Origin: Candidatus Nitromaritima sp.
GTDB lineage: Bacteria > Nitrospinota > Nitrospinia > Nitrospinales > VA-1
DNA length: 33,816 nt
Direction of reading: 5' to 3'
Assembly (NCBI GenBank): GCA_041938985.1
Contig: JBGTUV010000002.1
Coordinates: 1-33,816 of the forward strand
Shown here: positions 9,958-33,816 of the stretch, piece by piece
How positions within the stretch are numbered: position 1 is the first letter of the stretch
Layout of the letters: each line of letters begins with the position of its first letter
Position numbers and translations under genes: made by a program
Notes under the pieces: generated by a model
Told to the model about the DNA's origin: nothing
Database searches by the model: none
Seen by the model: only the letters and a program-made list of their open reading frames with translations

Positions 9958-9980
9958 GGGAAAAATGAACAAGAGAAACG

Positions 9981-14999: not shown

Positions 15000-17900
15000 C
15001 TCTTAAGTTTTGCAAACTGCATATATAGCAGTGGTATTAAGTACAAGCTAATGAAGGTTCCGATTAACATTCCTCCTATCACTGTCAAAGCAAGAGGACG
15101 CTGTAAAAGACCTCCCAATCCATCGATAAACAGAAATGGTACTAAGGCCAAAATAGTGGTAAGTGAAGTCATGACTATGGGTTTCAAACGTAGCTTACTA
15201 CCTTCTTTCACTGCCTCCTCTAGTGGTTTACCTTCTTTTCGCAAAAGGTTAATGGTGTGGATTTTTAATATACTATCGTTAATAATTATGCCGCTCATAA
15301 CCACAATCCCTATCATGGACATTAAATTTATAGTTCCCCCAAAAAGCCATAATAATAATAGGGCTCCACCAATATCGATTGGAACCTCTAGGATAATGAT
15401 CAGGGGTTGCCAAAAGGATTCGAACTGAGCAGCCATTATCAAGTATAAAAGCAGCAATGAGACCGTTATAACAACGGCCAATTCCCCGGCTAATTCTTGT
15501 TTATAGAACCAATTACCATCAAACTTTATATCATAGGGACTAGGCTTAAACCGCTCACGAATTAAATCCATCTGCCTCTCGACATCATTAGGTGAGTTCA
15601 TCTCAAACTCTAAATATTCTCCAATTCTAGAACCGATTATAGACCTGTATTGATTGTCGTTTCTAACCTCGATAAGGTTGCTTACCGCAATCTGTTTCCC
15701 TTCTTCATTCATAACAAAAAGATCGCTAAAAATGGATTCAAAATTGTCAGCTTGGTATACTAGATTGATAGGAATGAAGGACTCAGCCGTCTTGAGATCG
15801 TCTATAAAGTTCTCTCCCAAGGTGGTTTTTAGCTCGGAAAGCAGATCGGCATAATCAACCTTATATAAGAGCAGATTTTCGTGCAGTATTTCTATAGCCA
15901 CAGTTACTTTAGTAGGTATTTCAGAGCTAGTAGTATTACCGAAGAGAACAGCAATATCAGGCAACTCCTTTACTTGAGGCACTTCTAGGGATGATTTAGG
16001 GTACACCTTGGCTATTAGCTCTCTATTATCAGAACCAAAAATATACTCAAATGCTGTCTTTGGTTTACTAAAGCCAAAATTAGCCTTGGGATATTGTTGA
16101 CTCAGTTTCTCTGCAAGTTGTCGTTGACTCCGTTTTATCTTTGCATTGGTCCCTGCATTTAAATAAATCCTGGCCTCTGATGGACTTTTAACCAGCTCTG
16201 ACTGCAACAAATATTGGGTTTCGCCGATTTCCGCAAATTGGGTCTGAATATCATCAACTCCGGAGATCAGGCTTGCAATACGAACCTGACTCTCCTGTAA
16301 ATTTACGGGCTCATTCCAGTCAATAGTCAATTGAGCTTCACCTTGTTCCAAATCTGGCAGCTGCTCGTAACTAATAAGTTGAAAGAACAGCAGTGCGCAC
16401 ACGATACCCACCAAAGAAACCAAGTATACAACCCAAGGTGATTTTGAGAAGTACGCATATCCCTTCACATACATATTCTCCAATCCATTATTCTGCAAGC
16501 GACCCTTTAACCAACGATCGAATCCAAACTCCCTATGGTAAAGTTGCTTGTACAAAACTGGTATAATAAGAATTGAAACCACAAGGGAACTCCCTAGACC
16601 GAGTGAAACAGCAATAGCCTGATCATAGAACAGAGCTCCGGTTATCCCGCTTAAAAAGATAAGAGGCAAAAACACGGAACAAGTTGTAAGAACAGAGCTT
16701 ATTAAAGGAGAAATGATCTCATTGGTACCTTTAACACACGCCTCTGATATCGAGTGGTCATTTTCTAGTTTTTGAGCGATATTATCTGCAACAATAATGG
16801 CATTATCTATCATCATTCCAATGCCGAGAATTAGACCCGACAACGATATAATGTTTACCGAAAGCCCCAAAACATACATTAACAATAAGCTCAAAACTAG
16901 GGACAAGGGTATTGCAATGGCAATGATTAATGGAGATTTTAAGTCCTTTAAAAAGAAGAACAGGATCAAAATTGCGAATAAACCTCCCAGTAGCAGACTG
17001 GATTTTAGGTTATCGATTGAAAGTTTTAACAATCTGGATTGATCTTGATTAGTTTTAAACTGCAACTCAGGATAATCTGCTCTTAACGTCTGCAAAAGCA
17101 AATCCAGCTCTTCTTGCACCTTGTAAACCTGGGTTTCGGCTTGTTTGATGATCGCGAAATTTATACTACGCTGCCCGTCTACGAATACATTGCCCTTCTC
17201 GCGCTGAATCCCCATCTCTATGTCCGCCAATTCCTGCATCTGAAACAATTTGCCCTCTAAATTCAAGTAGAGTGATCTTATATCATCAACATCTCGAAGT
17301 GGATTGGTAAAGCTAAAATTGTATTGATAAATTCCATTCTGGATCACCAAATTCCCCTGGTCAAAATTGTTCTGCTTTATCGCCTCTATTAAAGTATTAT
17401 TGGTAATACCCAGAGACCTAAGTTTGTCAAGCTTCGGACGTATACGCACCTCATTCTTTACTTGACCATTAATATCTGCAAAAGCAATATCCGGAAGTTG
17501 TTCCAAGCGCTTCTTAAGTACCGTTTCTGCAAACAAACTCAGTTCTAAAAAGTCTAGTTTCGTAAAACCATCTTTCAAACTCACTGATAGATTTACAATA
17601 GGAACATCTGTCAGTGAAGCTTTGACAACCCTGGGACGGTCAAGGTCCCGAGGTAAGACATTAAGTGAAGCATCTACTTTTTCATTAGCCTCAACAAAGG
17701 CATAATCGGTATTCGTGCCATAGTCGAACTGTAATTTTAAAGTCGCAAATCCATCCCTGGTCTCACTTCGGATATCCTTTAAATTGCTCAGCTGCAATAA
17801 GCTGTTACGCAAAGGCCTGACTACGTTGGTCTCTAATTCTCTGGCGGTACTGTTAGGATATGCAAGTTGAACGCTAATCTCTGGTACTGCGATATCTGGC

Positions 17901-18004
17901 ATTAATGATGTAGGTATCTGAATGGCCGAAACGACTCCTAAGACAATAAATGCCATAGAAATCATCAGCACTGCAACCGGTCGATCTATTAGGAACTTGA
18001 CCAT
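14996..18004 (-). CDS. RND efflux transporter permease subunit (AcrB/CzcA superfamily)
   Basis: 1002 aa. N-terminus FLIDRPVAVLMISMAFIVLG. Two large periplasmic loops alternate with clusters of TM helices. A TM4-like motif GIGMMIDNAIIVADNI is present. Confidence 0.9.
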   Translation of the reverse strand: MVKFLIDRPVAVLMISMAFIVLGVVSAIQIPTSLMPDIAVPEISVQLAYPNSTARELETNVVRPLRNSLLQLSNLKDIRSETRDGFATLKLQFDYGTNTDYAFVEANEKVDASLNVLPRDLDRPRVVKASLTDVPIVNLSVSLKDGFTKLDFLELSLFAETVLKKRLEQLPDIAFADINGQVKNEVRIRPKLDKLRSLGITNNTLIEAIKQNNFDQGNLVIQNGIYQYNFSFTNPLRDVDDIRSLYLNLEGKLFQMQELADIEMGIQREKGNVFVDGQRSINFAIIKQAETQVYKVQEELDLLLQTLRADYPELQFKTNQDQSRLLKLSIDNLKSSLLLGGLFAILILFFFLKDLKSPLIIAIAIPLSLVLSLLLMYVLGLSVNIISLSGLILGIGMMIDNAIIVADNIAQKLENDHSISEACVKGTNEIISPLISSVLTTCSVFLPLIFLSGITGALFYDQAIAVSLGLGSSLVVSILIIPVLYKQLYHREFGFDRWLKGRLQNNGLENMYVKGYAYFSKSPWVVYLVSLVGIVCALLFFQLISYEQLPDLEQGEAQLTIDWNEPVNLQESQVRIASLISGVDDIQTQFAEIGETQYLLQSELVKSPSEARIYLNAGTNAKIKRSQRQLAEKLSQQYPKANFGFSKPKTAFEYIFGSDNRELIAKVYPKSSLEVPQVKELPDIAVLFGNTTSSEIPTKVTVAIEILHENLLLYKVDYADLLSELKTTLGENFIDDLKTAESFIPINLVYQADNFESIFSDLFVMNEEGKQIAVSNLIEVRNDNQYRSIIGSRIGEYLEFEMNSPNDVERQMDLIRERFKPSPYDIKFDGNWFYKQELAGELAVVITVSLLLLYLIMAAQFESFWQPLIIILEVPIDIGGALLLLWLFGGTINLMSMIGIVVMSGIIINDSILKIHTINLLRKEGKPLEEAVKEGSKLRLKPIVMTSLTTILALVPFLFIDGLGGLLQRPLALTVIGGMLIGTFISLYLIPLLYMQFAKLKR

Positions 18005-18012: not shown

Positions 18013-19200
18013 TTATAGGAGTTTAAATACCATATATCGTTTTTCATCTTCCTCTTCTTGTTCCAGTACGGGAAAATGCAGGCCTTCCTCTGTGACAAAA
18101 AAATTGTCCCAGATCTGTATTTGTTCATGAGGGAGTTTATAAGAGAATACGGCTTCTGTTTCCAAATCTAGAACAACTAAAGACAAGCCAATCAGCTCAG
18201 CAGTTTCTTTCTCTGTTTCTGCATCAATTATCCTTCGAGATCCATGTTTAAAAAGCCGATAAATGTATCTTCCATTTGGATCTATGGCCATTGTCAAATA
18301 GGTAGGTGATTGATCTGGATTAGGCCCAATACTTATCCCCCCTTCAAAGGTTTTAACAAGAGTATTGTCAAAATACTGCTGGATAGTGGATACTTCTAGA
18401 TCAGAATAGCCCGCATAATAGCTGGCAATCTTCTCATCTTTTCTAAAATGATAAATGCTGTCTCCTATCTCATAGCTGGTGTATAAGAGGTCACCATCTC
18501 TAACAATGTAAAAACCCATGTTTCTAATTCCACCGTTTTCGGCAGTAACCGTATTGTGAGCTAATATCTCGTCATAACCAGACACTAACTCGCGTTCATC
18601 CATATACACCTTTACCACCTCTTTAGATTTTATATCGTATACAACTCGCTTGAAATTGGGCTTTTGTTGGTCTGGCAATACTTGACTGAATCCACAATCC
18701 AATTGATCACCCCTTAGTTGAGTAGCTTGGTCAAGATGAAAGGTTTTTCTTTTAAAGAACCCAGATTGTGATGTTAATTCTGTTTTGTCTTTAACCACCC
18801 CAAACTTGTCAATTATAAAGTAGGCATCCAGATTCGTGGCAAAAATGCTGTCCCAATTTTGCACAAAATAACTCAGGTGACCATACCTTAGTGGCAATTG
18901 ATTAGGACCCTCTTGGTCAAGTACTATCTTATGCACTAGCACTCCTGAATCATAATGATAGGCATAGATGCTGTGATTTTTGCGGTTGAAGAAAGTAAAA
19001 TAAAGACTGTCATTCAGCTCAGTCAGGTTTGGCTGTAAGTACTCGAACGAGGTTTCATTGTCAAGCGCAAATATCTTATCTGTTTGCCGAGTTAATTGTG
19101 GCTTTATTGGCACTTCTCTCTGGGAATTATCAGGACCACAAGCTAAGTATAGCAAGAAACAGCTAATGCCCATAAATTTTAATTTGAAGCTCAAAGTCAA
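18013..19200 (-). CDS. DUF4221-like beta-propeller-type lipoprotein embedded in the RND operon
   Basis: 395 aa with lipobox LYLAC-G. The sequence is rich in aromatic and beta-strand residues. It shares the C-terminal block LSLVVLDLETEAVFSYKL with the paralogs at 21006, 30444 and 32116. Its start directly abuts the MFP stop (19200/19201). Confidence 0.7.
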   Translation of the reverse strand: MTLSFKLKFMGISCFLLYLACGPDNSQREVPIKPQLTRQTDKIFALDNETSFEYLQPNLTELNDSLYFTFFNRKNHSIYAYHYDSGVLVHKIVLDQEGPNQLPLRYGHLSYFVQNWDSIFATNLDAYFIIDKFGVVKDKTELTSQSGFFKRKTFHLDQATQLRGDQLDCGFSQVLPDQQKPNFKRVVYDIKSKEVVKVYMDERELVSGYDEILAHNTVTAENGGIRNMGFYIVRDGDLLYTSYEIGDSIYHFRKDEKIASYYAGYSDLEVSTIQQYFDNTLVKTFEGGISIGPNPDQSPTYLTMAIDPNGRYIYRLFKHGSRRIIDAETEKETAELIGLSLVVLDLETEAVFSYKLPHEQIQIWDNFFVTEEGLHFPVLEQEEEDEKRYMVFKLL

Positions 19201-20376
19201 TTAGTTTGAATTAAATACACCCTCGACTCTAGCATCATGGGCCAAATTTAAATTGCCAGATACAATTATAGAATCCCCTACTTTTAAACTCCCTGGTTTA
19301 AGCGCATAGTGAGAATTATTCTCAGCTATCACATCTACATAATTCCATTTTGCCGATCCGTTCTCATAGACAAACACCACCTCACGGTTAGAACGCAGCA
19401 CCAAAGCTTCTTTAGGAACTACAAAAACATTATCTAGAGGTTGGTTTATAAACACTTTGGCATTCATCCCGTCGTAAAGCCTGTTTCCAGCGTCTTCTAT
19501 AGCTGCGCGGATAGTGATAAGACCGTTCCCGTCTACTAAGGGGTTGACAGAAGTGATTAAACCAGTGTATGTAGCTTGGTCATCAGAAAACGGAACAACA
19601 TTTATCGCCTGCCCGATCGAAACAAAGTTAAATTCAGCTTCAAGCACAGCGAAAACAACATCCAGATTTTGCTGTTCGACCAAGGTACAAAACGCATCTG
19701 CTGAGGTTATATAATCACCTGCTCGGGTTTCAAGGTTGGCCACAAGGCCTGAAAAAGGAGCGCGGACATAGGTCTGTCCTAATTGTAATTTTGCCTCGTT
19801 TAAAGCATTGGCGGCCTCTTGCATTCCAGATCTTAGTTTTAAATTCTTTAAAACCTCATCAGGAATATTGTCTAGTCCGTTCATAGAAGCCCCGTAATTG
19901 ATCTTATCTTCTTCAAATTGGGCTTTGGCCTTATCGAGCTGAATTTGAGCCTTATCTACTGCATTGATCTGTATGGCATTGTCTAATTGGGCCAATAGCT
20001 GGCCCTTGATCACTCTTTGGCCGTTACGCACATTGATTGTAGCGATCTGCCCATTGATCTCGAACCTAAGCTCACTTTTCTGTCTTGATTCAATTTTACC
20101 ATTCGATATCAACTGTTTATCAAAAACTTGCTGTTCTAACGCTACAATTTGTACTTGCGGAGCACTTTTGTCGAAGTTAGAAAGCTGTTCTTCCTGGATT
20201 GCAGCATTGGGGTCATTCTTACAACTACTGACCAAAAGTAAACCTGCAATATAGCATGTACTTATTGTGATACGAGATGGAATCAAAGATCCATAAAAAT
20301 TGAACATGGGGCTGATCTTCATTTTAGGCAACTTAAGAAGAGTAATAATTACACTTGGTAATTCGCCCATTAACAA
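19201..20376 (-). CDS. RND efflux periplasmic adaptor (membrane fusion protein, HlyD family)
   Basis: Lipoyl-hairpin-like GQIATINVRNGQRVIKGQLLAQLD, a coiled-coil segment, and YVRAPFSGLVANL. The ORF-track start is a TTG. A more likely start is the ATG at 20322 (MKISPMF..., lipobox LLVSSC). Confidence 0.85.
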   Translation of the reverse strand: MLMGELPSVIITLLKLPKMKISPMFNFYGSLIPSRITISTCYIAGLLLVSSCKNDPNAAIQEEQLSNFDKSAPQVQIVALEQQVFDKQLISNGKIESRQKSELRFEINGQIATINVRNGQRVIKGQLLAQLDNAIQINAVDKAQIQLDKAKAQFEEDKINYGASMNGLDNIPDEVLKNLKLRSGMQEAANALNEAKLQLGQTYVRAPFSGLVANLETRAGDYITSADAFCTLVEQQNLDVVFAVLEAEFNFVSIGQAINVVPFSDDQATYTGLITSVNPLVDGNGLITIRAAIEDAGNRLYDGMNAKVFINQPLDNVFVVPKEALVLRSNREVVFVYENGSAKWNYVDVIAENNSHYALKPGSLKVGDSIIVSGNLNLAHDARVEGVFNSN

Positions 20377-20545: not shown

Positions 20546-21031
20546 TTATCTACCTCTTAGTTGTTGAGCAAATCTATCAAAGTTCTCCGCTAGGTTAAAG
20601 TAAAAAAACTGACTCAACCTGCCCTCTTCATACTTAAAGAAATAAACCATGGAATTTTTGTAAAAACTAGTATTCACCACTTCAAATCTCTTGTCATAGA
20701 TGATATTATATTTGCCCCTTAAAGCATCGTTTAAGAAGAAATTAGCTTCTTTTTTGGTTTTGGAACTCATTACCAAATAGACAGAAGGATCCCCTCTAAA
20801 AGTCTGTGCTTCCAGTAATCCTTTTATTTTCTCTAGACAGCTTGGACAAATATCCATTGGCAATACCAAATAAATTTCGTTTTGACCACTAATTTCCTGC
20901 CCCGATATATGGTTCAAATAACTCTCGAAATCGGCAGCTATATCGGAATATGCACCAGTCTGCTTACAGGCTAAAAAGAACAGAAGAACAAGACCCCAAA
21001 AAGCCTTAGTCAGATATTTTCGCGTATTCAT
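20546..21031 (-). CDS. CxxC-motif lipoprotein (thioredoxin-like?), paralog A
   Basis: The ORF is open to 21070. The Met at 21031 gives a clean lipoprotein signal (MNTRKYLTKAFWGLVLLFFLAC). The CPSC motif sits in IYLVLPMDICPSCLEK. It is a paralog of 30017-30481 and overlaps the upstream gene's 3' end. Confidence 0.65.
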   Translation of the reverse strand: MNTRKYLTKAFWGLVLLFFLACKQTGAYSDIAADFESYLNHISGQEISGQNEIYLVLPMDICPSCLEKIKGLLEAQTFRGDPSVYLVMSSKTKKEANFFLNDALRGKYNIIYDKRFEVVNTSFYKNSMVYFFKYEEGRLSQFFYFNLAENFDRFAQQLRGR

Positions 21032-22151
21032 AGACCTCGTATTGGAAGGCGTCCTCATCAAAATTATCATTGTTGGGATTGTTTAATGATAGATAAAGAG
21101 CATCGTTGCTAATAAATGAACAACCCAAATTGTATGTGCTGGCCTCGAAACGGTGCTCAGAAATTTTGTCAAGACTCTCATCAAGGACTAATATCACGAA
21201 AGGCTTGGAATGCATATCGTTCAGGTTACCAGAATCTGGATCAACCAAAGGAACTCCTAATGAAATAAACATGAAATAACGCTTCTGCTTTGGGTTGTAT
21301 AGCAATTTCTTATTCTGAAAAGCCTCTATATGAAAATTCATAATTCTTTCATAGTCGTTCATATGTATATACTTTTCAAAATAATCGCTCTTAAACTCTT
21401 TCGATTCCAATTTCCCATTCTTATACCAGTAAACTTTGTCACTAGTCGGAAAAGTAAACACAATACCTTTTTCTGCAGATGAAGTAACAATAGGAGTTAA
21501 ATGTCCAGGATAACGAACAGGTTGCACATAATCCAGTTCATATTTCAGCGGAAGTGCTGACAACTTGCGGGAAGCGATATTAATCCGACCAAAAAGGGGG
21601 TCATTTACTGCCATTTTCATATTCCTAGAATTCAAATTTCTCGGAAACACCACGAAGGTTAATTCCTTGTTATCGAATATTCCTGAATTAGTACCCATTA
21701 ATAAATGGACTTGGCCCAGCTCGAGATCCGGATTGGCATCTCGAAATTTGATTTGATCGTAGATTTCTCCGCTTTCTGTGGTAAAATATAGTGTTTGATT
21801 GTAAGGCCCCAGAAAGAAGATTGTGTCCTTGTTATGATAATAGAAATGTCCATTACCCAAAGTATTATCTCCTCCTTCGACCTTAGTGTTAGCAAGGCGT
21901 CTTAATTTCTGACTAACCAGATCTAATTCTATTAATGACTTGTCGTTCTTGTTCGTATTTGAAATAATTAATTTTTCTTCTTCCGGCAGGTATTGATGCC
22001 TGAGATAATAGGGAGAAGTCTGCGAATCGATACTATAACGAACCGTCGTTTTTAAATTTAAAGTGTAATTGCCCTTTGATGATTGCTCAATACTCTCTGA
22101 TTTACAACCGCACAAAAAGACAAGAACAAAAAGTAATAGTTGAAATTTCAT
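21006..22151 (-). CDS. DUF4221-like beta-propeller-type lipoprotein
   Basis: 381 aa with lipobox VFLCGC. It has the length and composition typical of Bacteroidota DUF4221 lipoproteins. C-terminal block FVILVLDESLDKISEHRF. Confidence 0.7.
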   Translation of the reverse strand: MKFQLLLFVLVFLCGCKSESIEQSSKGNYTLNLKTTVRYSIDSQTSPYYLRHQYLPEEEKLIISNTNKNDKSLIELDLVSQKLRRLANTKVEGGDNTLGNGHFYYHNKDTIFFLGPYNQTLYFTTESGEIYDQIKFRDANPDLELGQVHLLMGTNSGIFDNKELTFVVFPRNLNSRNMKMAVNDPLFGRINIASRKLSALPLKYELDYVQPVRYPGHLTPIVTSSAEKGIVFTFPTSDKVYWYKNGKLESKEFKSDYFEKYIHMNDYERIMNFHIEAFQNKKLLYNPKQKRYFMFISLGVPLVDPDSGNLNDMHSKPFVILVLDESLDKISEHRFEASTYNLGCSFISNDALYLSLNNPNNDNFDEDAFQYEVYEYAKISD

Positions 22152-22154: not shown

Positions 22155-22182
22155 AAAAAAAACGCATATGTAATACTATGCG
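22155..22182 (-). terminator. weak hairpin plus T8 tract directly after small peptide gene
   Basis: Stem CGCATA/TATGCG (22163-22168 / 22177-22182) with an 8-nt loop. On the minus strand it is followed by TTTTTTTT, which ends 3 nt before the next ATG (22151). Confidence 0.4.
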
Positions 22183-22210
22183 CTTATTTTCTTAATTTAA
22201 TAAGGCCTTA

Positions 22211-22405
22211 TCAATTCGTTTCGATAATAACTGGGTCTAAGCCAATGCAATTTACCCAAAAGTCGATGCAAAAATCATGTCCAGCCATTAGAAACATGTC
22301 AAAAACAGGTTCATCTTGGGCAATGGCTTTCTCAGGGCTAGTAAAAATGGCTACACTTGCAAGTAATCCCATTCCAACAGCTAAGTTTCTCATTTTTCTT
22401 TTCAT
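22211..22405 (-). CDS. small secreted peptide, 2 Cys (P4)
   Basis: 64 aa. Sec-type signal MKRKMRNLAVGMGLLASVAIFTSPEKAIA, then an acidic/hydrophobic ~35-aa tail with C-x6-C (DFCIDFWVNCIG). It leads an operon and shares upstream elements with 31687-31920. Confidence 0.55.
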   Translation of the reverse strand: MKRKMRNLAVGMGLLASVAIFTSPEKAIAQDEPVFDMFLMAGHDFCIDFWVNCIGLDPVIIETN

Positions 22406-22505: not shown

Positions 22506-22522
22506 TTGCGCTAAAAGTGCAA
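22506..22522 (-). promoter_or_regulatory. shared 17-nt motif TTGCAC-N5-GCGCAA (copy upstream of P4)
   Basis: The minus strand reads TTGCACTTTTAGCGCAA. It lies ~100 nt upstream of the P4 ATG and 14 nt after the signal peptidase stop. Confidence 0.6.
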
Positions 22523-22535: not shown

Positions 22536-23588
22536 TCAGCGGATAATTTTAACTACTTTTCCTTGAAGAAAATTAAACGGTACTACTCCAAAATTACGAG
22601 AATCAATTGAGCCATCTCGGTTGTCGCCTAAGACGAAAACATAGTCCTGCTTAAATGTATGCAAATTAGTTTCATTGCCAGAAGGAACAGGAGTTTGCCA
22701 ATCCTCAAAATTCTCTAGGATATACTTGTAGAGTGGATAATTCTCCTTATTGATTAGCACAGTCAGACCTTCCCCAGGAACTATAAGAGGTCCATAATTA
22801 TTCGCATCCCAATTTGGGTGTTGACTCCCTCCCAGCAGGCGGGAACCTTTTGTAATTGTGTCCGGACCAATGCTTAGGTTCTTATTTGCCTCCTCGTTCA
22901 CAAATACCCGATATTCTGAATTTGATAAATTTCTTATTGACCTCTTTCCCAGAGTGTTGGTGACAAGATAGTTTTTGCAGTATTGCTCTTTATCGGGAAG
23001 TAGGCTGCCATTTATTGAAACTTGCCCATTTGCTATTAGAAGGGTGTCTGTGGGTAAACCAACGATTCTTTTTACATAATACTTATCGATTTGGTCAATA
23101 GCCTTAAAAACGACAATATCCTCTCTTTGATAATCTTTAAAGGGATTCAATGAAGTAAAGGGTTGGAAGTTTATCGTGTCTACATGAGATTTAAATAAAT
23201 TACCAAAAACAGGGATCTCTTTCCAACTTCTGGGTATACGAGAACCGTAGGCTACCTTGTTGGTAAGAACATATTCTCCTTTAGAAATAGTTCTTTCCAT
23301 GGAGGCTGTCGGCACGTAGTAGTAGTCAAAAAATAAAGTACGTATTAACACAGCAAATAGTACGGGTGTCGCAATGTAAAACAGAAGCGATATTAATTTT
23401 AAAACAATGGATGGAAGCCGAGGTCTTAGAATAGAATACAGATAGCCCGTAGTAACAAAATCGAATACAATCAACAAAAAGATAAACACCAATACGAGCC
23501 GCGACCAGACTAAAAATACAAGGCTAACTACCACGAGCAAAACGAAAATGATCTTTCTGCCTGGGTTTATATTTGATGCTTCTGGCAA
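22536..23588 (-). CDS. lepB: signal peptidase I (S26 family) with extended multi-TM N-terminus
   Basis: 350 aa. Catalytic Ser context PTASMERTI, Lys context YVKRIVGLPTD, and box E GDNRDGSIDSRNFG. There is no in-frame ATG upstream of the catalytic Ser, so a TTG start at 23588 is inferred. About 95 aa of hydrophobic N-terminal extension. Confidence 0.85.
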   Translation of the reverse strand: MPEASNINPGRKIIFVLLVVVSLVFLVWSRLVLVFIFLLIVFDFVTTGYLYSILRPRLPSIVLKLISLLFYIATPVLFAVLIRTLFFDYYYVPTASMERTISKGEYVLTNKVAYGSRIPRSWKEIPVFGNLFKSHVDTINFQPFTSLNPFKDYQREDIVVFKAIDQIDKYYVKRIVGLPTDTLLIANGQVSINGSLLPDKEQYCKNYLVTNTLGKRSIRNLSNSEYRVFVNEEANKNLSIGPDTITKGSRLLGGSQHPNWDANNYGPLIVPGEGLTVLINKENYPLYKYILENFEDWQTPVPSGNETNLHTFKQDYVFVLGDNRDGSIDSRNFGVVPFNFLQGKVVKIIR

Positions 23589-23633
23589 GCTGAAAAATAT
23601 TATTTATTAAATGAACTTATACCTTTTTTTGGC

Positions 23634-24041
23634 TCAACAGATCGTACCTCTCATAATTAACAAAAGGACCACCTTTGACTTTTCAAAATAGACATTGGCT
23701 TTTTGCTCAAAAAAGCCAGTGATTTCATTATTGTACTGTAAGGTAATGAAAGTTCTCTGCCCCGGTTTGATCGGGCTAGAATCCCAGTCGATAACTGTAC
23801 AATCACAGTCAGCATCAATAGATTCTATTCGAATTGGATTAGTTCCATCGTTTGTGATCTCGAAGGTAGCTTTAGATTCACCGCTCTGAGCAACTCTACC
23901 AATATCAATTATATTTTCCTTCAAGGTTGCCTTTACTTCAACAGGTGCATCTTCCTTTTTTAACCATATATTATATGCCTTAATACCCGAAAGGGACAAA
24001 AGAATTACAAGCGCTACCGTCCATATAATCTTTTCTTTCAT
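23634..24041 (-). CDS. DUF1573-like protein
   Basis: 135 aa with an N-terminal TM/signal anchor. Typical DUF1573 pattern: IDIGRV..G....TFEITNDGTNPIRIESIDADCDCT..DW...IKPGQ...ITLQY. Confidence 0.75.
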   Translation of the reverse strand: MKEKIIWTVALVILLSLSGIKAYNIWLKKEDAPVEVKATLKENIIDIGRVAQSGESKATFEITNDGTNPIRIESIDADCDCTVIDWDSSPIKPGQRTFITLQYNNEITGFFEQKANVYFEKSKVVLLLIMRGTIC

Positions 24042-24050
24042 TGGGTTGGA

Positions 24051-25229
24051 TCAATTGAAGTTATAAAAAAACAGTAGGTCGCTGTTCTCGTAATTCAAAG
24101 AGTCTAAGGCTGGTAACAAGTCGGGGTTTATATTCTGCAATACACCAGTAAATTCATCACTGAGTTCTTTGTAGATTTCAAAGCGCTCAAATTGTAAACC
24201 GCTGATGTATTCGCTGGTACTACTTTTACCCACAGGTATTTCCAAAAATCGCAGTGTGAGGTCGTCGGCCTTATTTTGAGGAATATAGGTTTTATCGGCA
24301 TCCTTGAAATAATAAGCCAGATTATACATACTCTCGTTTATAAAAGAGAATGCTATCATATTCGAATCCACATAGTACTTATTGGTTAAATATGCCACAT
24401 CTCTGGCATTGGTTTTTGCGTCAAAACCAGGAAGATCGAACTTTTGTTCTTCTGGCCAGGTTTTTGGCCCAAAATTAAAGCGGTATACGGGTGTGAAATT
24501 GAGTTCATTATCCAGAGAAAGAATAACTGAAGAAGACTTGTAAGTGAAATACACCTTATCTGCCGATTTATTCATGCCTCCAGACAATCCAAAACTTTTG
24601 TAATCATCATAGTCATCAGGATATTTCCCGAAATAGCCAGTAGGAGTTCCAGTTTTTGTGTCTACTATTTTTATAGCGTATTGACCAGGTTCTATATAGC
24701 CGATGGAACAGGCCAGTACGTTGGGCGCTAAAACCGAGAGTGATTCTGGGTAGAATCCTTTAAAATCAACCTTTCGCACAAAATCGTTTTTTGAATTGTA
24801 AATCGTCAAACGAATTTGTGCATCTAGAATGATGATCTCATCATTCTTCTTATCAATATCGAAATCAAAGATAGATTCATATTCCTTTGGGCCACCACCT
24901 CGGATGCCTACTTTATTTAGAAACTTACCACTCTGGTCAAATACGAGGATATTCGATTTTTTCTTATCAAGAACAAAAAATTTATTCTTGTGTTCAATTA
25001 CTTTGTCTATGCTCGCCAAGGCATCTATTTCCGCTATTTCCATTAATGGAATGAATCTACTCTCACCAAATAGCGAAGCTAGGCGTACTTCTAAGTTCTT
25101 TTCGGCCTGGGTAATGTCAATTAATGAGGCTTGTTGATAATCTATGTGATCCTCTTTTTCAACACAACTTACCGAGAACAATAGCATAAAACAAATAAGA
25201 ATTTGAGGCAGCATTCTTTTCATAACCAT
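24051..25229 (-). CDS. six-bladed beta-propeller-type lipoprotein (BF3164-like)
   Basis: 392 aa with lipobox LFSVSC. Motifs typical of the Bacteroidota TolB-like propeller lipoprotein family (IPLMEI..., FFVLDKKKSNILVFDQSGKFLNKVGIRGGGPKEY). Confidence 0.7.
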   Translation of the reverse strand: MVMKRMLPQILICFMLLFSVSCVEKEDHIDYQQASLIDITQAEKNLEVRLASLFGESRFIPLMEIAEIDALASIDKVIEHKNKFFVLDKKKSNILVFDQSGKFLNKVGIRGGGPKEYESIFDFDIDKKNDEIIILDAQIRLTIYNSKNDFVRKVDFKGFYPESLSVLAPNVLACSIGYIEPGQYAIKIVDTKTGTPTGYFGKYPDDYDDYKSFGLSGGMNKSADKVYFTYKSSSVILSLDNELNFTPVYRFNFGPKTWPEEQKFDLPGFDAKTNARDVAYLTNKYYVDSNMIAFSFINESMYNLAYYFKDADKTYIPQNKADDLTLRFLEIPVGKSSTSEYISGLQFERFEIYKELSDEFTGVLQNINPDLLPALDSLNYENSDLLFFYNFN

Positions 25230-25336
25230 TTACGAATTCCGTGAAACATTAAATGTAATGAGATTAAATACAATAAATAAAGTAGCGCAGTCCATAAAGG
25301 GCCGACACTACTTAGCTATTCAGGTTTTAGTTTTTA

Positions 25337-25561
25337 CTACTGATTCGTTCCATCAGGGCAAGGGTTTGGAGCACAATTACCTCCGCCTTGTACACATAGA
25401 GTTCCGATAGATGCATAGAAACCTTCGTTATTGAAACAAGGAATTTCCATAATCTTCTTCACAGGTCCTATTACACTAGCATCCGATTGAAAATAGCCGT
25501 AAAAACTCAACGAAAATGCCGACACCGCTGCTACGACAGTTAATAATTTTAGTTTTTTCAT
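25337..25561 (-). CDS. small secreted 4-Cys peptide (P2)
   Basis: 74 aa. Signal MKKLKLLTVVAAVSAFSLSF.... The mature part has C-x13-C-x6-C-x4-C and ends CVQGGGNCAPNPCPDGTNQ. Paralog of P1. Confidence 0.7.
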   Translation of the reverse strand: MKKLKLLTVVAAVSAFSLSFYGYFQSDASVIGPVKKIMEIPCFNNEGFYASIGTLCVQGGGNCAPNPCPDGTNQ

Positions 25562-25578
25562 GAATATTAGTTTTAGGA

Positions 25579-25800
25579 TTAATTATTGTTTTCGTCGCCG
25601 CATGGATTTGGAACACAATAACCTTCGCCTTGGATACATTCGGCTCCTGATCCAGTTAATCTTCCAGCTGCATCTCTGCAGTCAATTTGATTAATTTTTT
25701 TTGCCTCTGTAAACGATGCTTCTGCCGAGGTGGTATTAACCAGACTCAAACATGTAAAGGCCACTCCTGCAGCTAGGGTGAATAATTTTAGTTTTCTCAT
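25579..25800 (-). CDS. small secreted 4-Cys peptide (P1)
   Basis: 73 aa. Signal MRKLKLFTLAAGVAFTCLSLVNTTSA. The mature part has identical spacing C-x13-C-x6-C-x4-C and ends CIQGEGYCVPNPCGDENNN. Confidence 0.7.
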   Translation of the reverse strand: MRKLKLFTLAAGVAFTCLSLVNTTSAEASFTEAKKINQIDCRDAAGRLTGSGAECIQGEGYCVPNPCGDENNN

Positions 25801-25864
25801 GATCTCGTGATTACGGAATTAATCTTTTTGTTTTTCAAGAATATTGAAAGAAACGCGATAAATT

Positions 25865-25881
25865 TTGCGCATATAGTGCAA
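25865..25881 (-). promoter_or_regulatory. shared 17-nt motif TTGCAC-N5-GCGCAA (copy upstream of P1)
   Basis: The minus strand reads TTGCACTATATGCGCAA, ~64 nt upstream of the P1 ATG. Confidence 0.6.
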
Positions 25882-25985
25882 ATATGTTTTTTGGAACGAA
25901 ATTTCTCGGCTGATATCTTTTGATCGGAATTTTAAAAAGAACAACTGTTCTGTGTGAGAATACCTCAACGGAAATTTTAGAGCAA

Positions 25986-26660
25986 CTAAATAATACCCAT
26001 AGATTTAGCCTTTAAGATAAGGGCTCGGTTGCTTTGATCTAAAACCCCAAGCTTTTCTTTAAGCCGCTTTTTACGATACTCTATAGCTCGTTTAGATAGC
26101 AGCAAAGACGCTCTCATTTCTTTATTCGTTGAGCCTTGGTTTAACTCGTTGAGCATTTTTAGGTCGGTTTTATCCATACCTAGTTCCTTTAAGGGATTTT
26201 TATTGAGATAGGCTGTTGTACTTTGGCAATAATAATTGCCGCCAGTAACCACGGCCGCTATAGCACGATCTATCTCCCATGCTTTGATACTGCTCTTTAC
26301 TAAGCAACCCTTGGGATTGAGCTCTGCAAAAATACGGTGCAGGTGCCACCAGGAATAATTTGCTGTAGCCACAATAAGCGGCGTTTCACTGTATTGCTTA
26401 AGTAGCAGGTTTCCCACATCGATACCGTTGAATAAATTGTATTGTGAACTGGCGGGAATTCGAAGATCCAAAATCACCAGATCAAATGGGGTTACGCTTT
26501 TGGATATATAGAAATAAGCTTTCTCACAATTATTGGCTTCATAAACACTAAGAACCTTTTGAGCTTGCTGGACGTAACTCTCTAGTTTAGATACGTAAAC
26601 ATTACGCACAAGAGGTTCGTCCTCTACCAATAGTACTCTGAAAGGCTTGTACATAGACAA
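25986..26660 (-). CDS. LuxR/NarL-family response regulator (orphan)
   Basis: 224 aa. Receiver (RVLLVEDEP, DLVILDLRIP) plus a C-terminal GerE-type HTH (LNELNQGSTNKEMRASLLLSKRAIEYRKKRLKEKLGV). No adjacent histidine kinase. Confidence 0.88.
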   Translation of the reverse strand: MSMYKPFRVLLVEDEPLVRNVYVSKLESYVQQAQKVLSVYEANNCEKAYFYISKSVTPFDLVILDLRIPASSQYNLFNGIDVGNLLLKQYSETPLIVATANYSWWHLHRIFAELNPKGCLVKSSIKAWEIDRAIAAVVTGGNYYCQSTTAYLNKNPLKELGMDKTDLKMLNELNQGSTNKEMRASLLLSKRAIEYRKKRLKEKLGVLDQSNRALILKAKSMGII

Positions 26661-26775: not shown

Positions 26776-29700
26776 TCAAAATGCATCATCAAATTTTCTA
26801 GCTCTTCTTAAGCTAAATAGGGGCAGATAAATTAGTATTCCTACAAAAGAAAAAAGCAGACCGCCTATAGTCCCCGCTCCTAGGGCAAACCAAAAAACTT
26901 CATTCTGCCCGTCAGCCACAAAGGGTATAAAACCGAGAATGGTAGAGATAATGGTAAGTGAAATTGGGAATATCTTCTGCCTGAAGGCTTTTATATAAGC
27001 TGAGAGTCCATCCATACCGGTCTTTCGCAAAAAGTTGAAATCATTTATAATAAATATAGATGCATTGACAGTGAGTCCACTAAGCAAAACAAAACTGGCC
27101 AAACCGCCTTGATCAAAATTATAATCAAACCAGTAAAAGGTCAAAAACACCCCAATAAAAGAAATGGGAATCACGCTTAAAATTATAAATGGCTGCGTAA
27201 AGCTTTCGAAAAGTGTTGCGCAAAGCAGGTATATTATGGCAATAACCAAAAGAAGCAGCCAAGTATATTGCGAGGTTTCCTCTGTTTTGAAAAAACTTAG
27301 ACTCCTCTGGCTACGCTCAAAGGTAAAACCAATGGGTAATGTAGGATTAATACTGTCTAGGGTCTTGCTCAAAAATCGGCTTCCGAATTTTGCAGCACCA
27401 GTATATTGAAATTTTATTTTTCTCAGATATTCCTGATTCTCTTTATCGATATTCTCTTGCTCTTTTACCTTTACCACCGTTCCTACATTGGCGAAGCGTT
27501 TTGGGAAATCAAGACTGTCCATTGGGTTGTTCTTAATATTCCAAAGGTCAAAGTCATAAGCCCTTGTAGATTCAAAACGCAAGGGATAGTTTTGCCCTGC
27601 CAATGTTAAATTAAGATCTGTGTTCTTTTGCAAGCTAACATCTTGTAGTTGCCGCATAAAACGCTGTGGCGAACTGCCTTGCAATGCCAGGGCCTGTTTG
27701 TCTAAGCTAAACTGATATTCATAACCGGACTTTCTTGAAAAGTCACTATTGTCAGTGATTTGGGCTTCCTGTATACGGGGATGTGCCTCTAGTGCTTCCT
27801 TTAATTGCAGAGCTAATTCACTTAATTTTTCATAATTGTAGCCTCTAGCCTGTACCGAATAATTATTGATAGCCCCAACAGCATTACTGTTGTTAAAGCC
27901 TTGTCCAACACCGTAAATACTCCATTCTAGGCCGCCAAAATCTAAGGCTTTTCTAATTAATCTGGCCTTTAGTTGATTAGGAAATGCTGTGTTTACAAAA
28001 TCCTCTTTAAAGGTTATTTCCATACGGGCGTAATCTCCACTATATACATTGGTCACATACCTATCCACTTCGACCATTGGACTCAAATAATTCTCCAAAC
28101 CAAGAAAAACCTCATTCATTTGATGCACTGTGGCTCCTTTTTCCATGCTGCCTATAACATAAAGTTTTGTCTCTTCGTTACGGCTGTAAAAGGCATTCTC
28201 ATAAACGAAGTACGAAAAGAGTCTGAAACTACCCCCTAGATATTTGTCAACAGAAGGCCGTATATGCTCTAAATACCACTCATTACCCAGTGTATTGTTA
28301 TACGCTTTTTGGTACCAGGTTTGATTGCTCTCTAATTGTTTTGGAAGCATAAAGAAAGGCACACCAAAGATCAGGATGAGCAAGATGATAGCCACTTTCT
28401 TATACCCGAGTAAGAACCGTAGTAAATTTGCATATTTTGGATAGAACCAGACCGAGAATCTCTCAATCGCTACATTTTTTTGCTTTGTCTTGTATGCGAT
28501 CCGCTTTAGAATCGCGGGCACCATATAAAATGCAATTACCAAGGAGACGCCAAGGTTTATACTTATAACTTTAGCAAAGTCTATCAAATTTAGTTTGTAC
28601 TCATCATCCAGAAAGTTGATTACGCTCAAAGCACCCATTGTAGTTAAGGTTGAGGCCAATATGGGAATAATGATTTTTTTGTTTCCCTGCATTCTGAGGT
28701 GATCTGTCATTACGATAATATTGTCAATGATAATGCCTAAAGAAATTGTTATTCCCGCCAGAGAATACAACTGAATCTCCACCCTGAATAAATAATAGAA
28801 TACAAAAGCAATACAAATATTTGCGACCAGGCAGATAACCACCGTAAAGAGATATCGCAAAGACAAGCTCACCAAACCTATGAACAATAGTAGGATTATG
28901 AGGGTGTAAATACTGCGCTTATAGATCTTACTTAGTTCTTCCTGTAGGTATGTGGTACTGTCGTAATCTTTTACGATTGTATAGTCTGATGGCAGTGTTT
29001 TCTGAATCTCATCCAACAGTAGGACAACCTCTTTTGCAAGGGCGATAGTGTTTGCGTCTTTGGTCGCGTTCAAACCAATAGTGATGGCATTTTTACCATT
29101 GACACGGTAATAGCTTCTGGCTTCTTGTTCCTGCTTGCGTATCTGAGATATCTCATCGAGGTAAACTATCTTTCCTCCAACCTCAGTTAAGGGAATATGC
29201 CATTGTAATTGCTGCGGCCCAGGTTTAACCACCACGTTGAATTCCAGCATACTTTGATGCACCTTTCCTATCGAAACTCGTTCGAACAGGCGGTCTACTG
29301 CAAAGACAAGCTGCTGCTTCCCTATATTTAAGGCCCTTAATTTATCATTGTTAAAACTAATAAGGAACTCTAAAGGATTGGCACCATTAACGTTCACTTG
29401 ATCAATGCCACTCAAAGAACCGATCTGGGGAACAATACGCGCACTTACTGTCTCTTGTATCTCCAAACGAGAACGCGGGGCATTAACACTATAAGATAAA
29501 AAAACACCTTGTTGATCATCATCCGGGCGGTTAACACTGATCACAGGATAACTACAGTTAACCGGAAAGCTTTTATACAATTGCCGTATCACAGTGGCTA
29601 CTTCGAAACGAGCTATGTCTATATCGGCATATTTATCAAAACTGATCTGTACATATCCTCTAGATTTCGAAGACCTTGAACTTATCTTTTCTATATTCCG

Positions 29701-29904
29701 AAGGGTACTAAAACCACCTTCCAAGGTAGCTGTGATCTGCTGTTCGACAGATTTAGAAGATGCCCCAGGCCAACTGTAATCAACACGTATAGAAGGAGGT
29801 GTTTTACTTGGGTTTAAGCGCAATGACAAACGCGAAGCCAAACCGAGACCTATTATGGTCAAGACCATAATAACAACTAATATTTTAAAGGAAGAAAACT
29901 TCAA
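26776..29904 (-). CDS. RND efflux transporter permease subunit (AcrB superfamily), no adjacent adaptor or outer membrane factor
   Basis: 1042 aa. Two periplasmic loop/TM cluster halves. TM4-like motif GIIIDNIIVMTDHL. TTG start inferred, as there is no in-frame ATG near the N-terminus. Confidence 0.88.
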   Translation of the reverse strand: MKFSSFKILVVIMVLTIIGLGLASRLSLRLNPSKTPPSIRVDYSWPGASSKSVEQQITATLEGGFSTLRNIEKISSRSSKSRGYVQISFDKYADIDIARFEVATVIRQLYKSFPVNCSYPVISVNRPDDDQQGVFLSYSVNAPRSRLEIQETVSARIVPQIGSLSGIDQVNVNGANPLEFLISFNNDKLRALNIGKQQLVFAVDRLFERVSIGKVHQSMLEFNVVVKPGPQQLQWHIPLTEVGGKIVYLDEISQIRKQEQEARSYYRVNGKNAITIGLNATKDANTIALAKEVVLLLDEIQKTLPSDYTIVKDYDSTTYLQEELSKIYKRSIYTLIILLLFIGLVSLSLRYLFTVVICLVANICIAFVFYYLFRVEIQLYSLAGITISLGIIIDNIIVMTDHLRMQGNKKIIIPILASTLTTMGALSVINFLDDEYKLNLIDFAKVISINLGVSLVIAFYMVPAILKRIAYKTKQKNVAIERFSVWFYPKYANLLRFLLGYKKVAIILLILIFGVPFFMLPKQLESNQTWYQKAYNNTLGNEWYLEHIRPSVDKYLGGSFRLFSYFVYENAFYSRNEETKLYVIGSMEKGATVHQMNEVFLGLENYLSPMVEVDRYVTNVYSGDYARMEITFKEDFVNTAFPNQLKARLIRKALDFGGLEWSIYGVGQGFNNSNAVGAINNYSVQARGYNYEKLSELALQLKEALEAHPRIQEAQITDNSDFSRKSGYEYQFSLDKQALALQGSSPQRFMRQLQDVSLQKNTDLNLTLAGQNYPLRFESTRAYDFDLWNIKNNPMDSLDFPKRFANVGTVVKVKEQENIDKENQEYLRKIKFQYTGAAKFGSRFLSKTLDSINPTLPIGFTFERSQRSLSFFKTEETSQYTWLLLLVIAIIYLLCATLFESFTQPFIILSVIPISFIGVFLTFYWFDYNFDQGGLASFVLLSGLTVNASIFIINDFNFLRKTGMDGLSAYIKAFRQKIFPISLTIISTILGFIPFVADGQNEVFWFALGAGTIGGLLFSFVGILIYLPLFSLRRARKFDDAF

Positions 29905-30016: not shown

Positions 30017-30481
30017 TTATAGTGCTCGTTTGTCTAAATACATTTTTGCTTCTTCAATTTTAAAGTCGCTTATGTTCAGATGATAAATGCATTTACCATC
30101 TTTCATATCAACAATCATTGGTTTGGAAAAACCTGTTTCATATTGTGATATCACAAACTTATCATCAACTAAAATGTTATCATACAAATCATACAAATTT
30201 TGAATTTGTAATACCCTTTCCGTATCAAAAGTTTCACCAACTAAGATTAGCTGTACATTGTATTTTGTACTACTTAACAAACCTATATTTAACTTTATGC
30301 AGTTATCACAGCCGTTGATTGGAAGCAAAAAATAAATATTCTCTCCCTCTAAATTGTCAACTTGAAGTTCTTGTGTTAAGTAAGCAGTAAAATCTTCACA
30401 GTAAGCATAAGCACCTTCATTTTTACAAGAAACCAATATCTGGTTAAAAATTAATATGAGTAAAAATGTTCTCGCTCTCAT
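30017..30481 (-). CDS. CxxC-motif lipoprotein (thioredoxin-like?), paralog B
   Basis: 154 aa with lipobox ILVSC. CDNC motif in IYFLLPINGCDNCIKL. It aligns with 20546-21031 and overlaps the upstream gene by 38 nt. Confidence 0.65.
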   Translation of the reverse strand: MRARTFLLILIFNQILVSCKNEGAYAYCEDFTAYLTQELQVDNLEGENIYFLLPINGCDNCIKLNIGLLSSTKYNVQLILVGETFDTERVLQIQNLYDLYDNILVDDKFVISQYETGFSKPMIVDMKDGKCIYHLNISDFKIEEAKMYLDKRAL

Positions 30482-31686: not shown

Positions 31687-31920
31687 TTATTGGTTTGTAC
31701 GAAACTGATAACATATCCAAGTAGTGATATCACAAAGATCACCCACACCTCCACACATATATCTATACCCCGAAAAGCACTCTTCAGTTTCTTGAATAAC
31801 TTCAGTATTACCTCTCAAACTACGCGAAGAAGTATCTTTTGCGTTGATACTATCCAGATTTAGTATTGACGGTGCAAACAAAAAGGCGAATACGATTGCG
31901 AATAATACATTTTTTTTCAT
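31687..31920 (-). CDS. small secreted 4-Cys peptide (P3)
   Basis: 77 aa. Signal MKKNVLFAIVFAFLFAPSILNLDSINA. The mature part has C-x7-C-x6-C-x6-C (ECFSGYRYMCGGVGDLCDITTWICY). It leads an operon. Confidence 0.6.
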   Translation of the reverse strand: MKKNVLFAIVFAFLFAPSILNLDSINAKDTSSRSLRGNTEVIQETEECFSGYRYMCGGVGDLCDITTWICYQFRTNQ

Positions 31921-32010: not shown

Positions 32011-32027
32011 TTGCACTTTTAGTGCAA
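32011..32027. promoter_or_regulatory. shared 17-nt motif, perfect palindrome TTGCACTTTTAGTGCAA, in divergent intergenic region
   Basis: Perfect 6-5-6 inverted repeat, ~90 nt from the P3 ATG (31920) and ~88 nt from the ATG of the divergent gene (32116). Confidence 0.6.
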
Positions 32028-33454: not shown

Positions 33455-33560
33455 GACGGGATTCATTTTTGCTTCGCAAAAATGGTCCGCAGGGGTGGTC
33501 CTGCAATAAAGTGGACCCTTACCTCCTGCTTGCAGCAGGAGAAGTCTTTTTTTGTTTCCT
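33455..33560 (+). repeat. structured tandem repeat unit 1 (candidate small RNA with its own terminator)
   Basis: 106 nt. Hairpin CATTTTTGC-TTC-GCAAAAATG. Conserved core GGGGTGGTCCTGCAATAAAGTGGACCC. Terminator CTCCTGC-TTGCA-GCAGGAG followed by AAGTCTTTTTTTGTTT. Confidence 0.6.
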
Positions 33561-33602
33561 ACGCCTCAAAAGCATCACCATAATTAATAAGTAGACCTAA
33601 TG

Positions 33603-33710
33603 GACGGGATTGTTTTTTCACTTCGTGAAAAAACGTTTACAGGGGTGGTCCTGCAATAAAGTGAACCCTTACCTCTTGCTTGCAGCAGGAGAAGTCTTTT
33701 TTTGTTTCCT
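33603..33710 (+). repeat. structured tandem repeat unit 2
   Basis: 108 nt. The first hairpin is rewritten as GTTTTTTCAC-TTC-GTGAAAAAAC, with compensatory changes relative to unit 1. Same core and terminator (one G-U wobble). Confidence 0.6.
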
Positions 33711-33739
33711 GCTTTTAAAAAGTACTAGCTAAATTTAGA

Positions 33740-33816
33740 GACGGGATTCATTTTTGCTTCACAAAAATGGTCCGCAGGGGTGGTCCTGCAATAAAGTGGA
33801 CCCTTACCTCCTGCTT
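33740..33816 (+). repeat. structured tandem repeat unit 3 (truncated by window end)
   Basis: Near-identical to unit 1 up to the 5' arm of the terminator, where the window ends. Confidence 0.55.

Follow-up and report, generated by a model that had tools for sequence, protein, structure and literature searches.

The three-gene block and its signal peptidase

We followed up a block of three genes at 22536-25229 of a 33,816-nt stretch of contig JBGTUV010000002.1 (hereafter the window, by which the whole stretch at its full length is meant), where a first-pass annotation made from the letters alone had described a signal peptidase I of family S26, a DUF1573 protein and a propeller lipoprotein, co-transcribed behind a pair of small peptide genes (P1/P2), and had proposed that the peptidase is a paralog dedicated to these peptides. 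The three minus-strand open reading frames (ORFs) are present exactly where they had been placed, with gaps of 9 and 45 nt between them, and their identities were borne out by profile matches above the cut-offs: the product of 22536-23588 matches PF10502 Peptidase_S26 (1.4e-32, 113 bits, cutoff 22.9) and TIGR02227 signal peptidase I of NCBIfam (114 bits against a cutoff of 47), that of 23634-24041 matches PF07610 DUF1573 (2.3e-22, 79 bits, cutoff 26.1), and the third product matches PF17170 DUF5128, the '6-bladed beta-propeller' family (4.5e-32, 112 bits, cutoff 22.9, model positions 10-314 of 321). The description of the latter as 'BF3164-like' holds at the level of the fold, the best PDB sequence matches being NHL-repeat propellers and 4RAA, but not at the level of the family, as there were 0 BF3164 model matches (NCBIfam, E<=0.01). 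Its lipobox, LFSVSC, is non-canonical but plausible.

The catalytic motifs of the peptidase were all found as described, namely SMERTI with S96, VKRIVGLPTD with K173, and GDNRDGSIDSRNFG. In an alignment with E. coli LepB (PDB 1T7D), S96, K173 and box E (G321-R331) fall on its Ser, Lys and box-E segments, and these motifs are identical in all of ten aligned S26 proteins; because of this alignment and invariance, the product is read as a Ser/Lys peptidase of the P type that shows no decay, and as catalytically competent. No ATG lies 5' of the catalytic-serine codon, and the earliest in-frame ATG, at M97, would remove S96. JGI/IMG has a 254-aa form which, as counted from the sequence, would begin at this very M97 and so lack S96, and NCBI sources have a 317-aa form, which would begin at an internal GTG at codon 34. 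Since relatives conserve protein sequence upstream of the codon-34 GTG, i.e., F.LW[SA][KRN]L in the first hydrophobic segment, the TTG start proposed earlier appears to be the best call. The N-terminal region of about 87 aa carries three hydrophobic segments before the catalytic domain, with charges that, as read from the sequence, are compatible with an N-in topology. In E. coli LepB, two transmembrane (TM) segments lie within about 76 aa, and ordinary Flavobacteriaceae LepB has an even longer multi-TM N-domain (DUF5684), so that the earlier remark on an 'unusually long' multi-helix N-terminus has to be dropped.

A rare peptidase subfamily and its genomic setting

Proteins encoded in the neighbourhood of the block are at least 90% identical to those of Gilvibacter sp. 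SZ-19 (Flavobacteriaceae; 3.10-Mb genome), where the DUF1573 gene corresponds to BTO09_07500 and the resistance-nodulation-division (RND) permease and TolC genes correspond to BTO09_07535/07540. Judged by these identities, the window is DNA of a marine Gilvibacter sp., near-identical to SZ-19. The same DNA was found across many marine, ballast-water and host-associated sequencing runs.

The peptidase falls outside ordinary Flavobacteriaceae LepB, in a rare monophyletic subfamily whose members measure about 340-350 aa and come from marine Flavobacteriaceae. A word-indexed protein search returned one 99% copy, followed by four proteins of 316-345 aa at 35-42% identity, and the remaining S26 matches, among the matches listed, were at most 35% identical. 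A neighbour-joining tree built from 126 S26 sequences places the window enzyme in an exclusive clade of 11 tips, made up of itself, these four proteins and six genome-derived relatives, and its closest relatives beyond the subfamily are not Flavobacteriaceae LepBs. HMMER searching of 1.84 billion protein cluster representatives gave 16,778 S26-like sequences, just 58 of them at E<=1e-30; about 25-30 of the 58 are subfamily-like, 334-358 aa long and matching from residue 10-15 on, the N-terminal TM region included. A genome scan, which itself returned no Gilvibacter locus, the window's own region included, placed the subfamily in seven species-representative genomes, all seven of Flavobacteriaceae (a Tenacibaculum metagenome-assembled genome (MAG), a Kordia MAG, the single-cell genome Flavobacterium sp. 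SCGC AAA160-P02 and four uncultured or unclassified Flavobacteriaceae).

The housekeeping LepB of Flavobacteriaceae (DUF5684 + Peptidase_S26, 520-580 aa) shares with the window enzyme the catalytic family, the motifs and a multi-TM N-terminus. The two are, however, only 26-30% identical, and the subfamily is without the DUF5684 domain (residues 33-111 in the ordinary Flavobacteriaceae LepB P0078), the C-terminal IRWxR tail and several of the inserts that ordinary Bacteroidota LepB has; inserts that the window enzyme does have are shorter, and it is rare and tied to one locus type. No DUF5684 match was found in its N-terminus at E<=10. Because the subfamily is rare and differs from the ordinary Flavobacteriaceae LepB, whereas the long type is seen in the named 'signal peptidase I' entries of Flavobacteriaceae (Maribacter, Allomuricauda, Apibacter, Myroides), the window enzyme is very probably an accessory paralog, i.e., an extra copy. 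Ten long-type LepB clusters (Maribacter, Allomuricauda, Apibacter and others) contained no Gilvibacter entry.

In the 12 distinct related loci examined, the genes of the subfamily are linked to a single locus type, consisting of a divergent RND pump, an exporter of membrane fusion protein (MFP) and RND permease with or without an outer-membrane efflux protein (OEP), and cassettes in which a Cys-rich peptide of the Sec type is joined by a propeller lipoprotein and a small partner with a Cys motif; the neighbourhood in related genera is thus peptide-linked, as it is in the window. Wherever a related locus extends far enough to show it, the neighbour of the S26 gene is an orthologue of the divergent RND permease (50-59% identity), usually in convergent orientation (L005, L006-L010, L012-L014, L016, L017, L039/L040), and beyond the permease the order in relatives runs through a peptide, a 360-420-aa lipoprotein of the DUF4221/DUF5128 kind, a 135-170-aa partner, an MFP and a second RND permease. 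The cassette is convergent to the S26 gene in L039/L040 (peptide-DUF5128-DUF1573) and lies between regulator and peptidase, all on the same strand, in the window; in P0002, P0003 and L018 the S26 gene stands directly 3' of the LuxR-type regulator, and neither a peptide nor a propeller or DUF1573 gene intervenes. A more distant S26 protein, P0006 (30% identity), is encoded beside rpmB, rpmG and ftsY, a housekeeping setting. As the flank 5' of the S26 gene shows no relationship between genomes, the peptidase gene is taken to mark one edge of a sporadically distributed locus (Table 1 gives the features of the window).

Upstream of the S26 gene, L002 (1-8744) and L006/L007 (1-9573) carry a defence or mobile-element island, with Eco57I/MmeI-type methyltransferases (restriction-modification), HATPase proteins, AbiEii, RteC and HTH_17, and this island in two relatives suggests that the locus borders variable regions.

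Table 1. Features of the window (strand as given in the analysis; a dot marks features without strand)
Feature	Position	Strand	Basis
TolC-like OEP	13647-14999	-	Pfam
RND permease (second pump)	14996-18004	-	Pfam
DUF4221 propeller lipoprotein	18013-19200	-	Pfam
MFP	19201-20376	-	Pfam
Small lipoprotein with CPSC motif, 174 aa, homologous to the 154-aa protein	20546..21070	-	Sequence comparison
Lipoprotein, 381 aa, related to the 388-aa DUF4221-like propeller lipoprotein	21006..22151	-	Sequence comparison
Terminator-like hairpin 3' of the 64-aa peptide gene	22160-22185	-	Fold scan
Peptide precursor, 64 aa, predicted cut AIA/Q, 2 Cys	22211..22405	-	ORF, signal-peptide layout
Palindromic box, copy 2, just past the S26 stop, ~100 nt upstream of the third peptide gene	22506..22522	.	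Motif scan
Signal peptidase I (S26A, Ser96/Lys173), 350 aa, TTG start	22536..23588	-	Pfam, NCBIfam, alignment, tree
DUF1573 Ig-like protein, 135 aa, N-terminal membrane anchor, CxC (C79-D-C81)	23634..24041	-	Pfam, motif alignment
DUF5128 NHL-type six-bladed beta-propeller, 392 aa, probable lipoprotein (LFSVSC)	24051..25229	-	Pfam, PDB sequence matches
Hairpin with U-rich tail 3' of the second peptide gene, possible attenuator or partial terminator	25280..25313	-	Fold scan
Peptide precursor, 74 aa, Sec-type signal peptide, predicted cut SDA/S, 4-Cys core	25337..25561	-	ORF, homologues
Paralogous peptide precursor, 73 aa, predicted cut AEA/S	25579..25800	-	ORF
Palindromic box TTGCAC-N5-GCGCAA, putative operator, ~65-80 nt upstream of the first peptide gene	25865..25881	.	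Motif scan
LuxR/NarL-type response regulator, immediately 5' of S26 in several relatives	25986..26660	-	Pfam, NCBIfam
Divergent RND permease ('ACR2'), 21% identical to the second pump	26776..29904	-	Sequence comparison
Third cassette: 154-aa CxxC lipoprotein, predicted thioredoxin fold	30017-30481	-	AlphaFold model
Third cassette: 388-aa propeller-like lipoprotein	30444-31610	-	Sequence comparison
Third cassette: 77-aa peptide (predicted cut INA/K)	31687-31920	-	ORF, signal-peptide layout
Palindromic box, copy 3, between the 77-aa peptide gene and the divergent DUF4221 gene	32011..32027	.	Motif scan
DUF4221 gene, divergent	32116-33282	+	Pfam/sequence comparison

The divergent RND permease gave a good ACR_tran profile match over its first half only, and no MFP gene immediately adjoins it in the window. 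For the DUF5128 subtype of the window, a search of 5.8 billion proteins found just three relatives at E<=1e-10, and a metagenome scan from the propeller side recovered the identical contig and two distant matches only.

Peptides, redox partners and transcription

The window holds four peptide genes (31687-31920, 25579-25800, 25337-25561 and 22211-22405) in three cassettes. Read from the sequence, all the precursors have a basic n-region, a hydrophobic core, small residues at -3/-1 and a Cys-containing mature part; the predicted cuts in the order just given are INA/K, AEA/S, SDA/S and AIA/Q. Peptides of the same design are encoded 5' of the propeller genes in related loci, with predicted cuts VEA/Q, AEA/Q, ADA/Q and AVA/Q, and Q after the cleavage site is the usual Bacteroidetes pattern (PMC5837995). 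The P1/P2 pair has a common core, C-x13-C-x5-C-x4-C with a PNPC end, which recurs in the 75-aa peptide of L039 and in a peptide fragment of L047; these are clear homologues with DUF5128 and DUF1573 genes next to them in both cases, so the peptide, propeller and partner types travel together.

Across 15 precursors (window, L005, L008, L012-L014, L016, L017, L039, L047), residue -2 is mostly acidic (A-[E/D]-A) and the polar c-region is mostly unusually long, at 7-10 residues. The locus peptidase could use these two traits together for recognition. P1/P2 is also a strain-variable tandem duplication, for a 239-nt deletion allele (25558-25796), seen in L001 and in a cDNA contig of run X26, keeps one peptide gene behind the upstream promoter region.

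Small peptides with a hydrophobic N-terminus beside six-bladed propeller lipoproteins likewise make up the NVEALA/BF3164 arrays of Bacteroides, which, as we take it from database family descriptions, have similar leader ends (VEA.A). Signal peptidases, redox partners and RND pumps are, to our knowledge, no known parts of those arrays. Membership of the window locus in such an array is not supported, with 0 NVEALA and 0 BF3164 model matches; searched against Pfam, ten peptides (three of the window, seven of related loci) gave no NVEALA-named family at E<=10 and no other known peptide family. A literature search on NVEALA, DUF4221, DUF5128 and BF3164 yielded nothing relevant to this locus type.

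Each cassette also encodes a small protein with a Cys motif. In six locus-linked DUF1573 proteins the motif C-[DHG]-C-T (CxC) is invariant, and their N-terminal anchors look uncleaved. The window protein further shows a weak match to the OS_HP2 (seleno)protein model of NCBIfam, and UGC selenoprotein forms of DUF1573 have been described (PMC9312934, PMC13188914). We consider DUF1573 a putative thiol-redox partner of its cassette. In the two sister cassettes its position is taken by mutually homologous lipoproteins with CDNC and CPSC motifs (30017-30481 and 20546-21070), which belong to an 8-member family in 5.8 billion proteins and have no Pfam match. A sequence search against PDB gave no match for them, and the predicted fold alone was informative. 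The AlphaFold2 model of the 154-aa protein (pLDDT 77, pTM 0.72) places the CxxC (58-61) between a strand (48-54) and a helix (59-69), the latter overlapping the motif, and its top Foldseek matches are all thiol-disulfide oxidoreductases (CcmG, ResA, TlpA, FetE) at a modest TM-score of 0.45-0.52. For the 154-aa and 174-aa partners, a TlpA/ResA/CcmG-like thioredoxin fold is thus predicted.

The first-pass annotation had the three genes co-transcribed behind P1/P2, and support for a transcription unit P2-P1-DUF5128-DUF1573-S26 comes from contigs assembled from RNA libraries. Metatranscriptome contigs span the whole locus. One SMART-library cDNA contig (X26 record 12, 23360-26378) bridges the regulator, peptide, DUF5128, DUF1573 and S26 genes, others bridge DUF5128-DUF1573-S26 (X25 record 7, X28 record 29) or peptide and lipoprotein (X28 record 28), and in run X13 a contig break at 25806/25905 near the palindromic box separates a word depth of 108 downstream from 24 upstream, although depth is a poor measure of expression. 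Such bridging is not proof of co-transcription, and a hairpin with a U-rich tail stands 3' of the second peptide gene; this hairpin (25280-25313) and that at 22160-22185, both 3' of peptide genes, could lower read-through.

As to regulation, the 17-bp palindrome TTGCAC-N5-G(T/C)GCAA has three copies in the window, only upstream of peptide genes and each 65-117 nt away, a count not reached in any of 100 shuffles. A locus regulator, possibly the LuxR-type response regulator, probably has its operator here. Since copy 2 lies just past the S26 stop, the peptidase gene would be the last of a unit running from 25800, and the 64-aa peptide gene would open the next one. The palindrome is kept in the 99%-identical contig L001 and not in other genera; the L039 peptide genes share another upstream box.

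Other scans of the intergenic regions were less informative: the folding energies of the hairpins are not significant, searches for sigma-70-type and Bacteroidetes -7 (TAnnTTTG) promoters gave nothing useful there, and the sigma-54 promoter consensus is not enriched in the window. An RNA end at 23359, which recurs in four runs, was rejected as a transcript end, being due to mispriming of the SMART template-switch oligo on genomic AGTACGGG (23359-23366), which is identical to the oligo's 3' end; this artefact has to be reckoned with whenever such libraries are read. At window position 22154, in the T-run that separates the hairpin 3' of the 64-aa peptide gene from the start codon (ATG) of the 381-aa lipoprotein gene, RNA contigs of four runs show a length polymorphism, with one or two additional A (plus strand).

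Role of the peptidase, rival explanations and flanking modules

Taken together, these data led us to a reading in which the window enzyme is the accessory P-type peptidase of a conserved, rare peptide-export locus of marine Flavobacteriaceae and serves that locus as a whole, a reading to which we give about even credence. The earlier idea of a substrate-dedicated paralog survives in part: a rare subfamily distinct from ordinary Flavobacteriaceae LepB, tied in other genera to a locus of peptides, propellers, redox partners and RND pumps whose precursors bear AxA-type sites, speaks for it. Dedication to P1/P2 in particular is not supported, in view of the direct regulator-S26 adjacency in P0002, P0003 and L018, the convergent cassette of L039, and the four peptide genes and three cassettes of the window; because gene order varies and the regulator can directly precede the S26 gene, the peptidase looks dedicated to the locus as a whole and not to the P1/P2 pair.

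A plausible course of events can be drawn up. The promoter regions of the cassettes share the palindromic box, as the sequence shows, and P2-P1-DUF5128-DUF1573-S26 are probably transcribed together. The precursors would cross the inner membrane via Sec, and the locus S26 would cut off the signal peptides at an A-x-A site, in many cases A-[E/D]-A with Q after it. Disulfides may then be formed or rearranged by the DUF1573 or thioredoxin-like partners, and the propeller lipoprotein might bind the peptide, whether for chaperoning, for further processing or for immunity. Finally, by analogy with the E. coli enterotoxin STII, the MFP-RND-OEP pump would expel the folded peptide from the periplasm to the outside. 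STII itself passes through Sec, signal cleavage, DsbA and MacAB-TolC (PMC5985334), and the likeness lies in a small Cys-rich Sec peptide, periplasmic disulfides and exit by a tripartite pump with a TolC-like duct. In the case of STII, however, the general LepB, DsbA and an ABC-type pump are encoded elsewhere, whereas the window locus has its own genes for peptidase, redox partners and RND-type pumps; the propeller lipoproteins have no counterpart in the STII pathway.

Several points weigh against this reading. Gene order and strand are not conserved among the related loci, and P0002, P0003 and L018 are short contigs on which only the regulator and S26 are to be seen. The boundary between the subfamily and other S26 proteins in the HMMER search is graded, not sharp; a housekeeping S26 copy in Gilvibacter was only inferred and not seen directly; and contigs from RNA libraries may contain DNA. 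Moreover, the S1/S3 pocket positions of the window enzyme are similar to those of ordinary Bacteroidota LepB, so there is no sequence sign of special specificity, and the general signal peptidase (SPase) would probably be able to cleave these AxA sites as well. What was observed is the gene content, the motifs, the linkage and the coverage by RNA; every biochemical step of the mechanism is inferred.

It is this lack of any sign of altered specificity in the active-site region that makes a capacity-boosting role a serious rival, one that we nevertheless regard as rather unlikely on balance. The enzyme would then be a load-sharing SPase I of general specificity, co-induced for a burst of Sec substrates (peptides, OEP, DUF1573 proteins). 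Catalytic and pocket residues similar to ordinary Bacteroidota LepB, standard AxA sites in the peptides and the position of S26 directly 3' of a LuxR/NarL-type response regulator in several relatives all fit such a role, for which B. subtilis offers a precedent: there sipS and sipT are co-regulated with secretory proteins via DegS-DegU, whose regulator is of the NarL/LuxR type. A generic booster would, however, be expected in many contexts, whereas the subfamily is rare and bound to one locus type across genera. The enzyme might instead act at a second site, cutting a pro-segment or another locus protein such as the anchored DUF1573 after LepB has removed the signal peptide. In most precursors 10-15 residues separate the predicted cut from the first Cys, some carry two AxA-like motifs (e.g., ADAQTSTDAQAQ in L016), and the DUF1573 anchors look uncleaved; yet S26 enzymes are known for membrane-proximal signal peptides and the pro-segments are not conserved, which leaves this alternative improbable.

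Two further explanations fare worse. That the enzyme is simply the sole housekeeping signal peptidase I in an incidental position is very improbable, given a subfamily that the genome scan met in only seven species-representative genomes, named Flavobacteriaceae LepBs of the long DUF5684 type, and closest non-subfamily relatives other than Flavobacteriaceae LepBs. Hardly credible at all is a self-resistance copy, i.e., an insensitive target protecting the cell from a locus product that inhibits SPase I. Duplicated essential targets in biosynthetic loci are, as is generally known, an established resistance logic, but the window contains no biosynthetic enzymes, and the residue at what we take to be the arylomycin-resistance proline position of E. 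coli LepB is Tyr89, with Val, Ala or Gly in relatives.

Going beyond the favoured locus-wide accessory role, one may imagine a self-contained production line of disulfide-rich peptides (bacteriocins or signals) with exchangeable peptide/propeller/thiol-oxidoreductase cassettes, in which the conserved three-TM N-domain of the S26 enzyme is physically coupled to the divergent RND permease and links cleavage to the handover for export across the outer membrane. This thought arose because the peptidase is constantly paired with the divergent RND permease, and we hold it to be a distinctly unlikely, speculative extension.

The analogy with Bacillus SipW, drawn in the first-pass annotation, applies to function and not to family kinship. 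SipW is an ER-type Ser/His signal peptidase that processes TasA/TapA, and its gene (tapA-sipW-tasA of B. subtilis) likewise stands in the operon of its presumed substrates, beside general signal peptidases encoded in the genome. The window enzyme differs in being Ser/Lys (K173 in the KRIVGLP box) where SipW, as is general knowledge, is an ER/archaeal-type Ser/His enzyme, and its candidate substrates are 60-90-aa Cys-rich peptides in a diderm host with an RND exporter, whereas TasA and TapA are fibre proteins. Operon-embedded signal peptidases are thus already known, mainly from Gram-positives with SipW as the standard example; what is new here is a P-type enzyme from Bacteroidota in the company of Cys-rich peptides, redox partners, propellers and RND export, and our literature search found nothing on such an operon-embedded peptidase in Bacteroidota. 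The locus also joins families with almost no literature (DUF5128, DUF4221, DUF1573 and the tiny thioredoxin-like family) and gives each of them testable roles. Should the peptides prove to serve Flavobacteriaceae of the phycosphere and of biofilms as antimicrobials or signals, the modular cassettes would offer a supply of new disulfide-rich peptides, and the locus would be a model for peptide export from periplasm to outside by RND pumps.

Beside the locus lies a duplicated regulatory module (2222-7510 and 7854-13102), in which a sigma-54 activator of ~1040 aa with PAS/GAF domains is encoded along with a DUF7793 protein, a PAS histidine kinase and a response regulator that has a receiver domain only. 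At the other end, 33455-33816 is a tandem array of units 135-150 nt apart, every one of which contains a short palindrome (CATTTTTGCTTCGCAAAAATG); since the window stops within this array, the array may be a repeat that broke the assembly.

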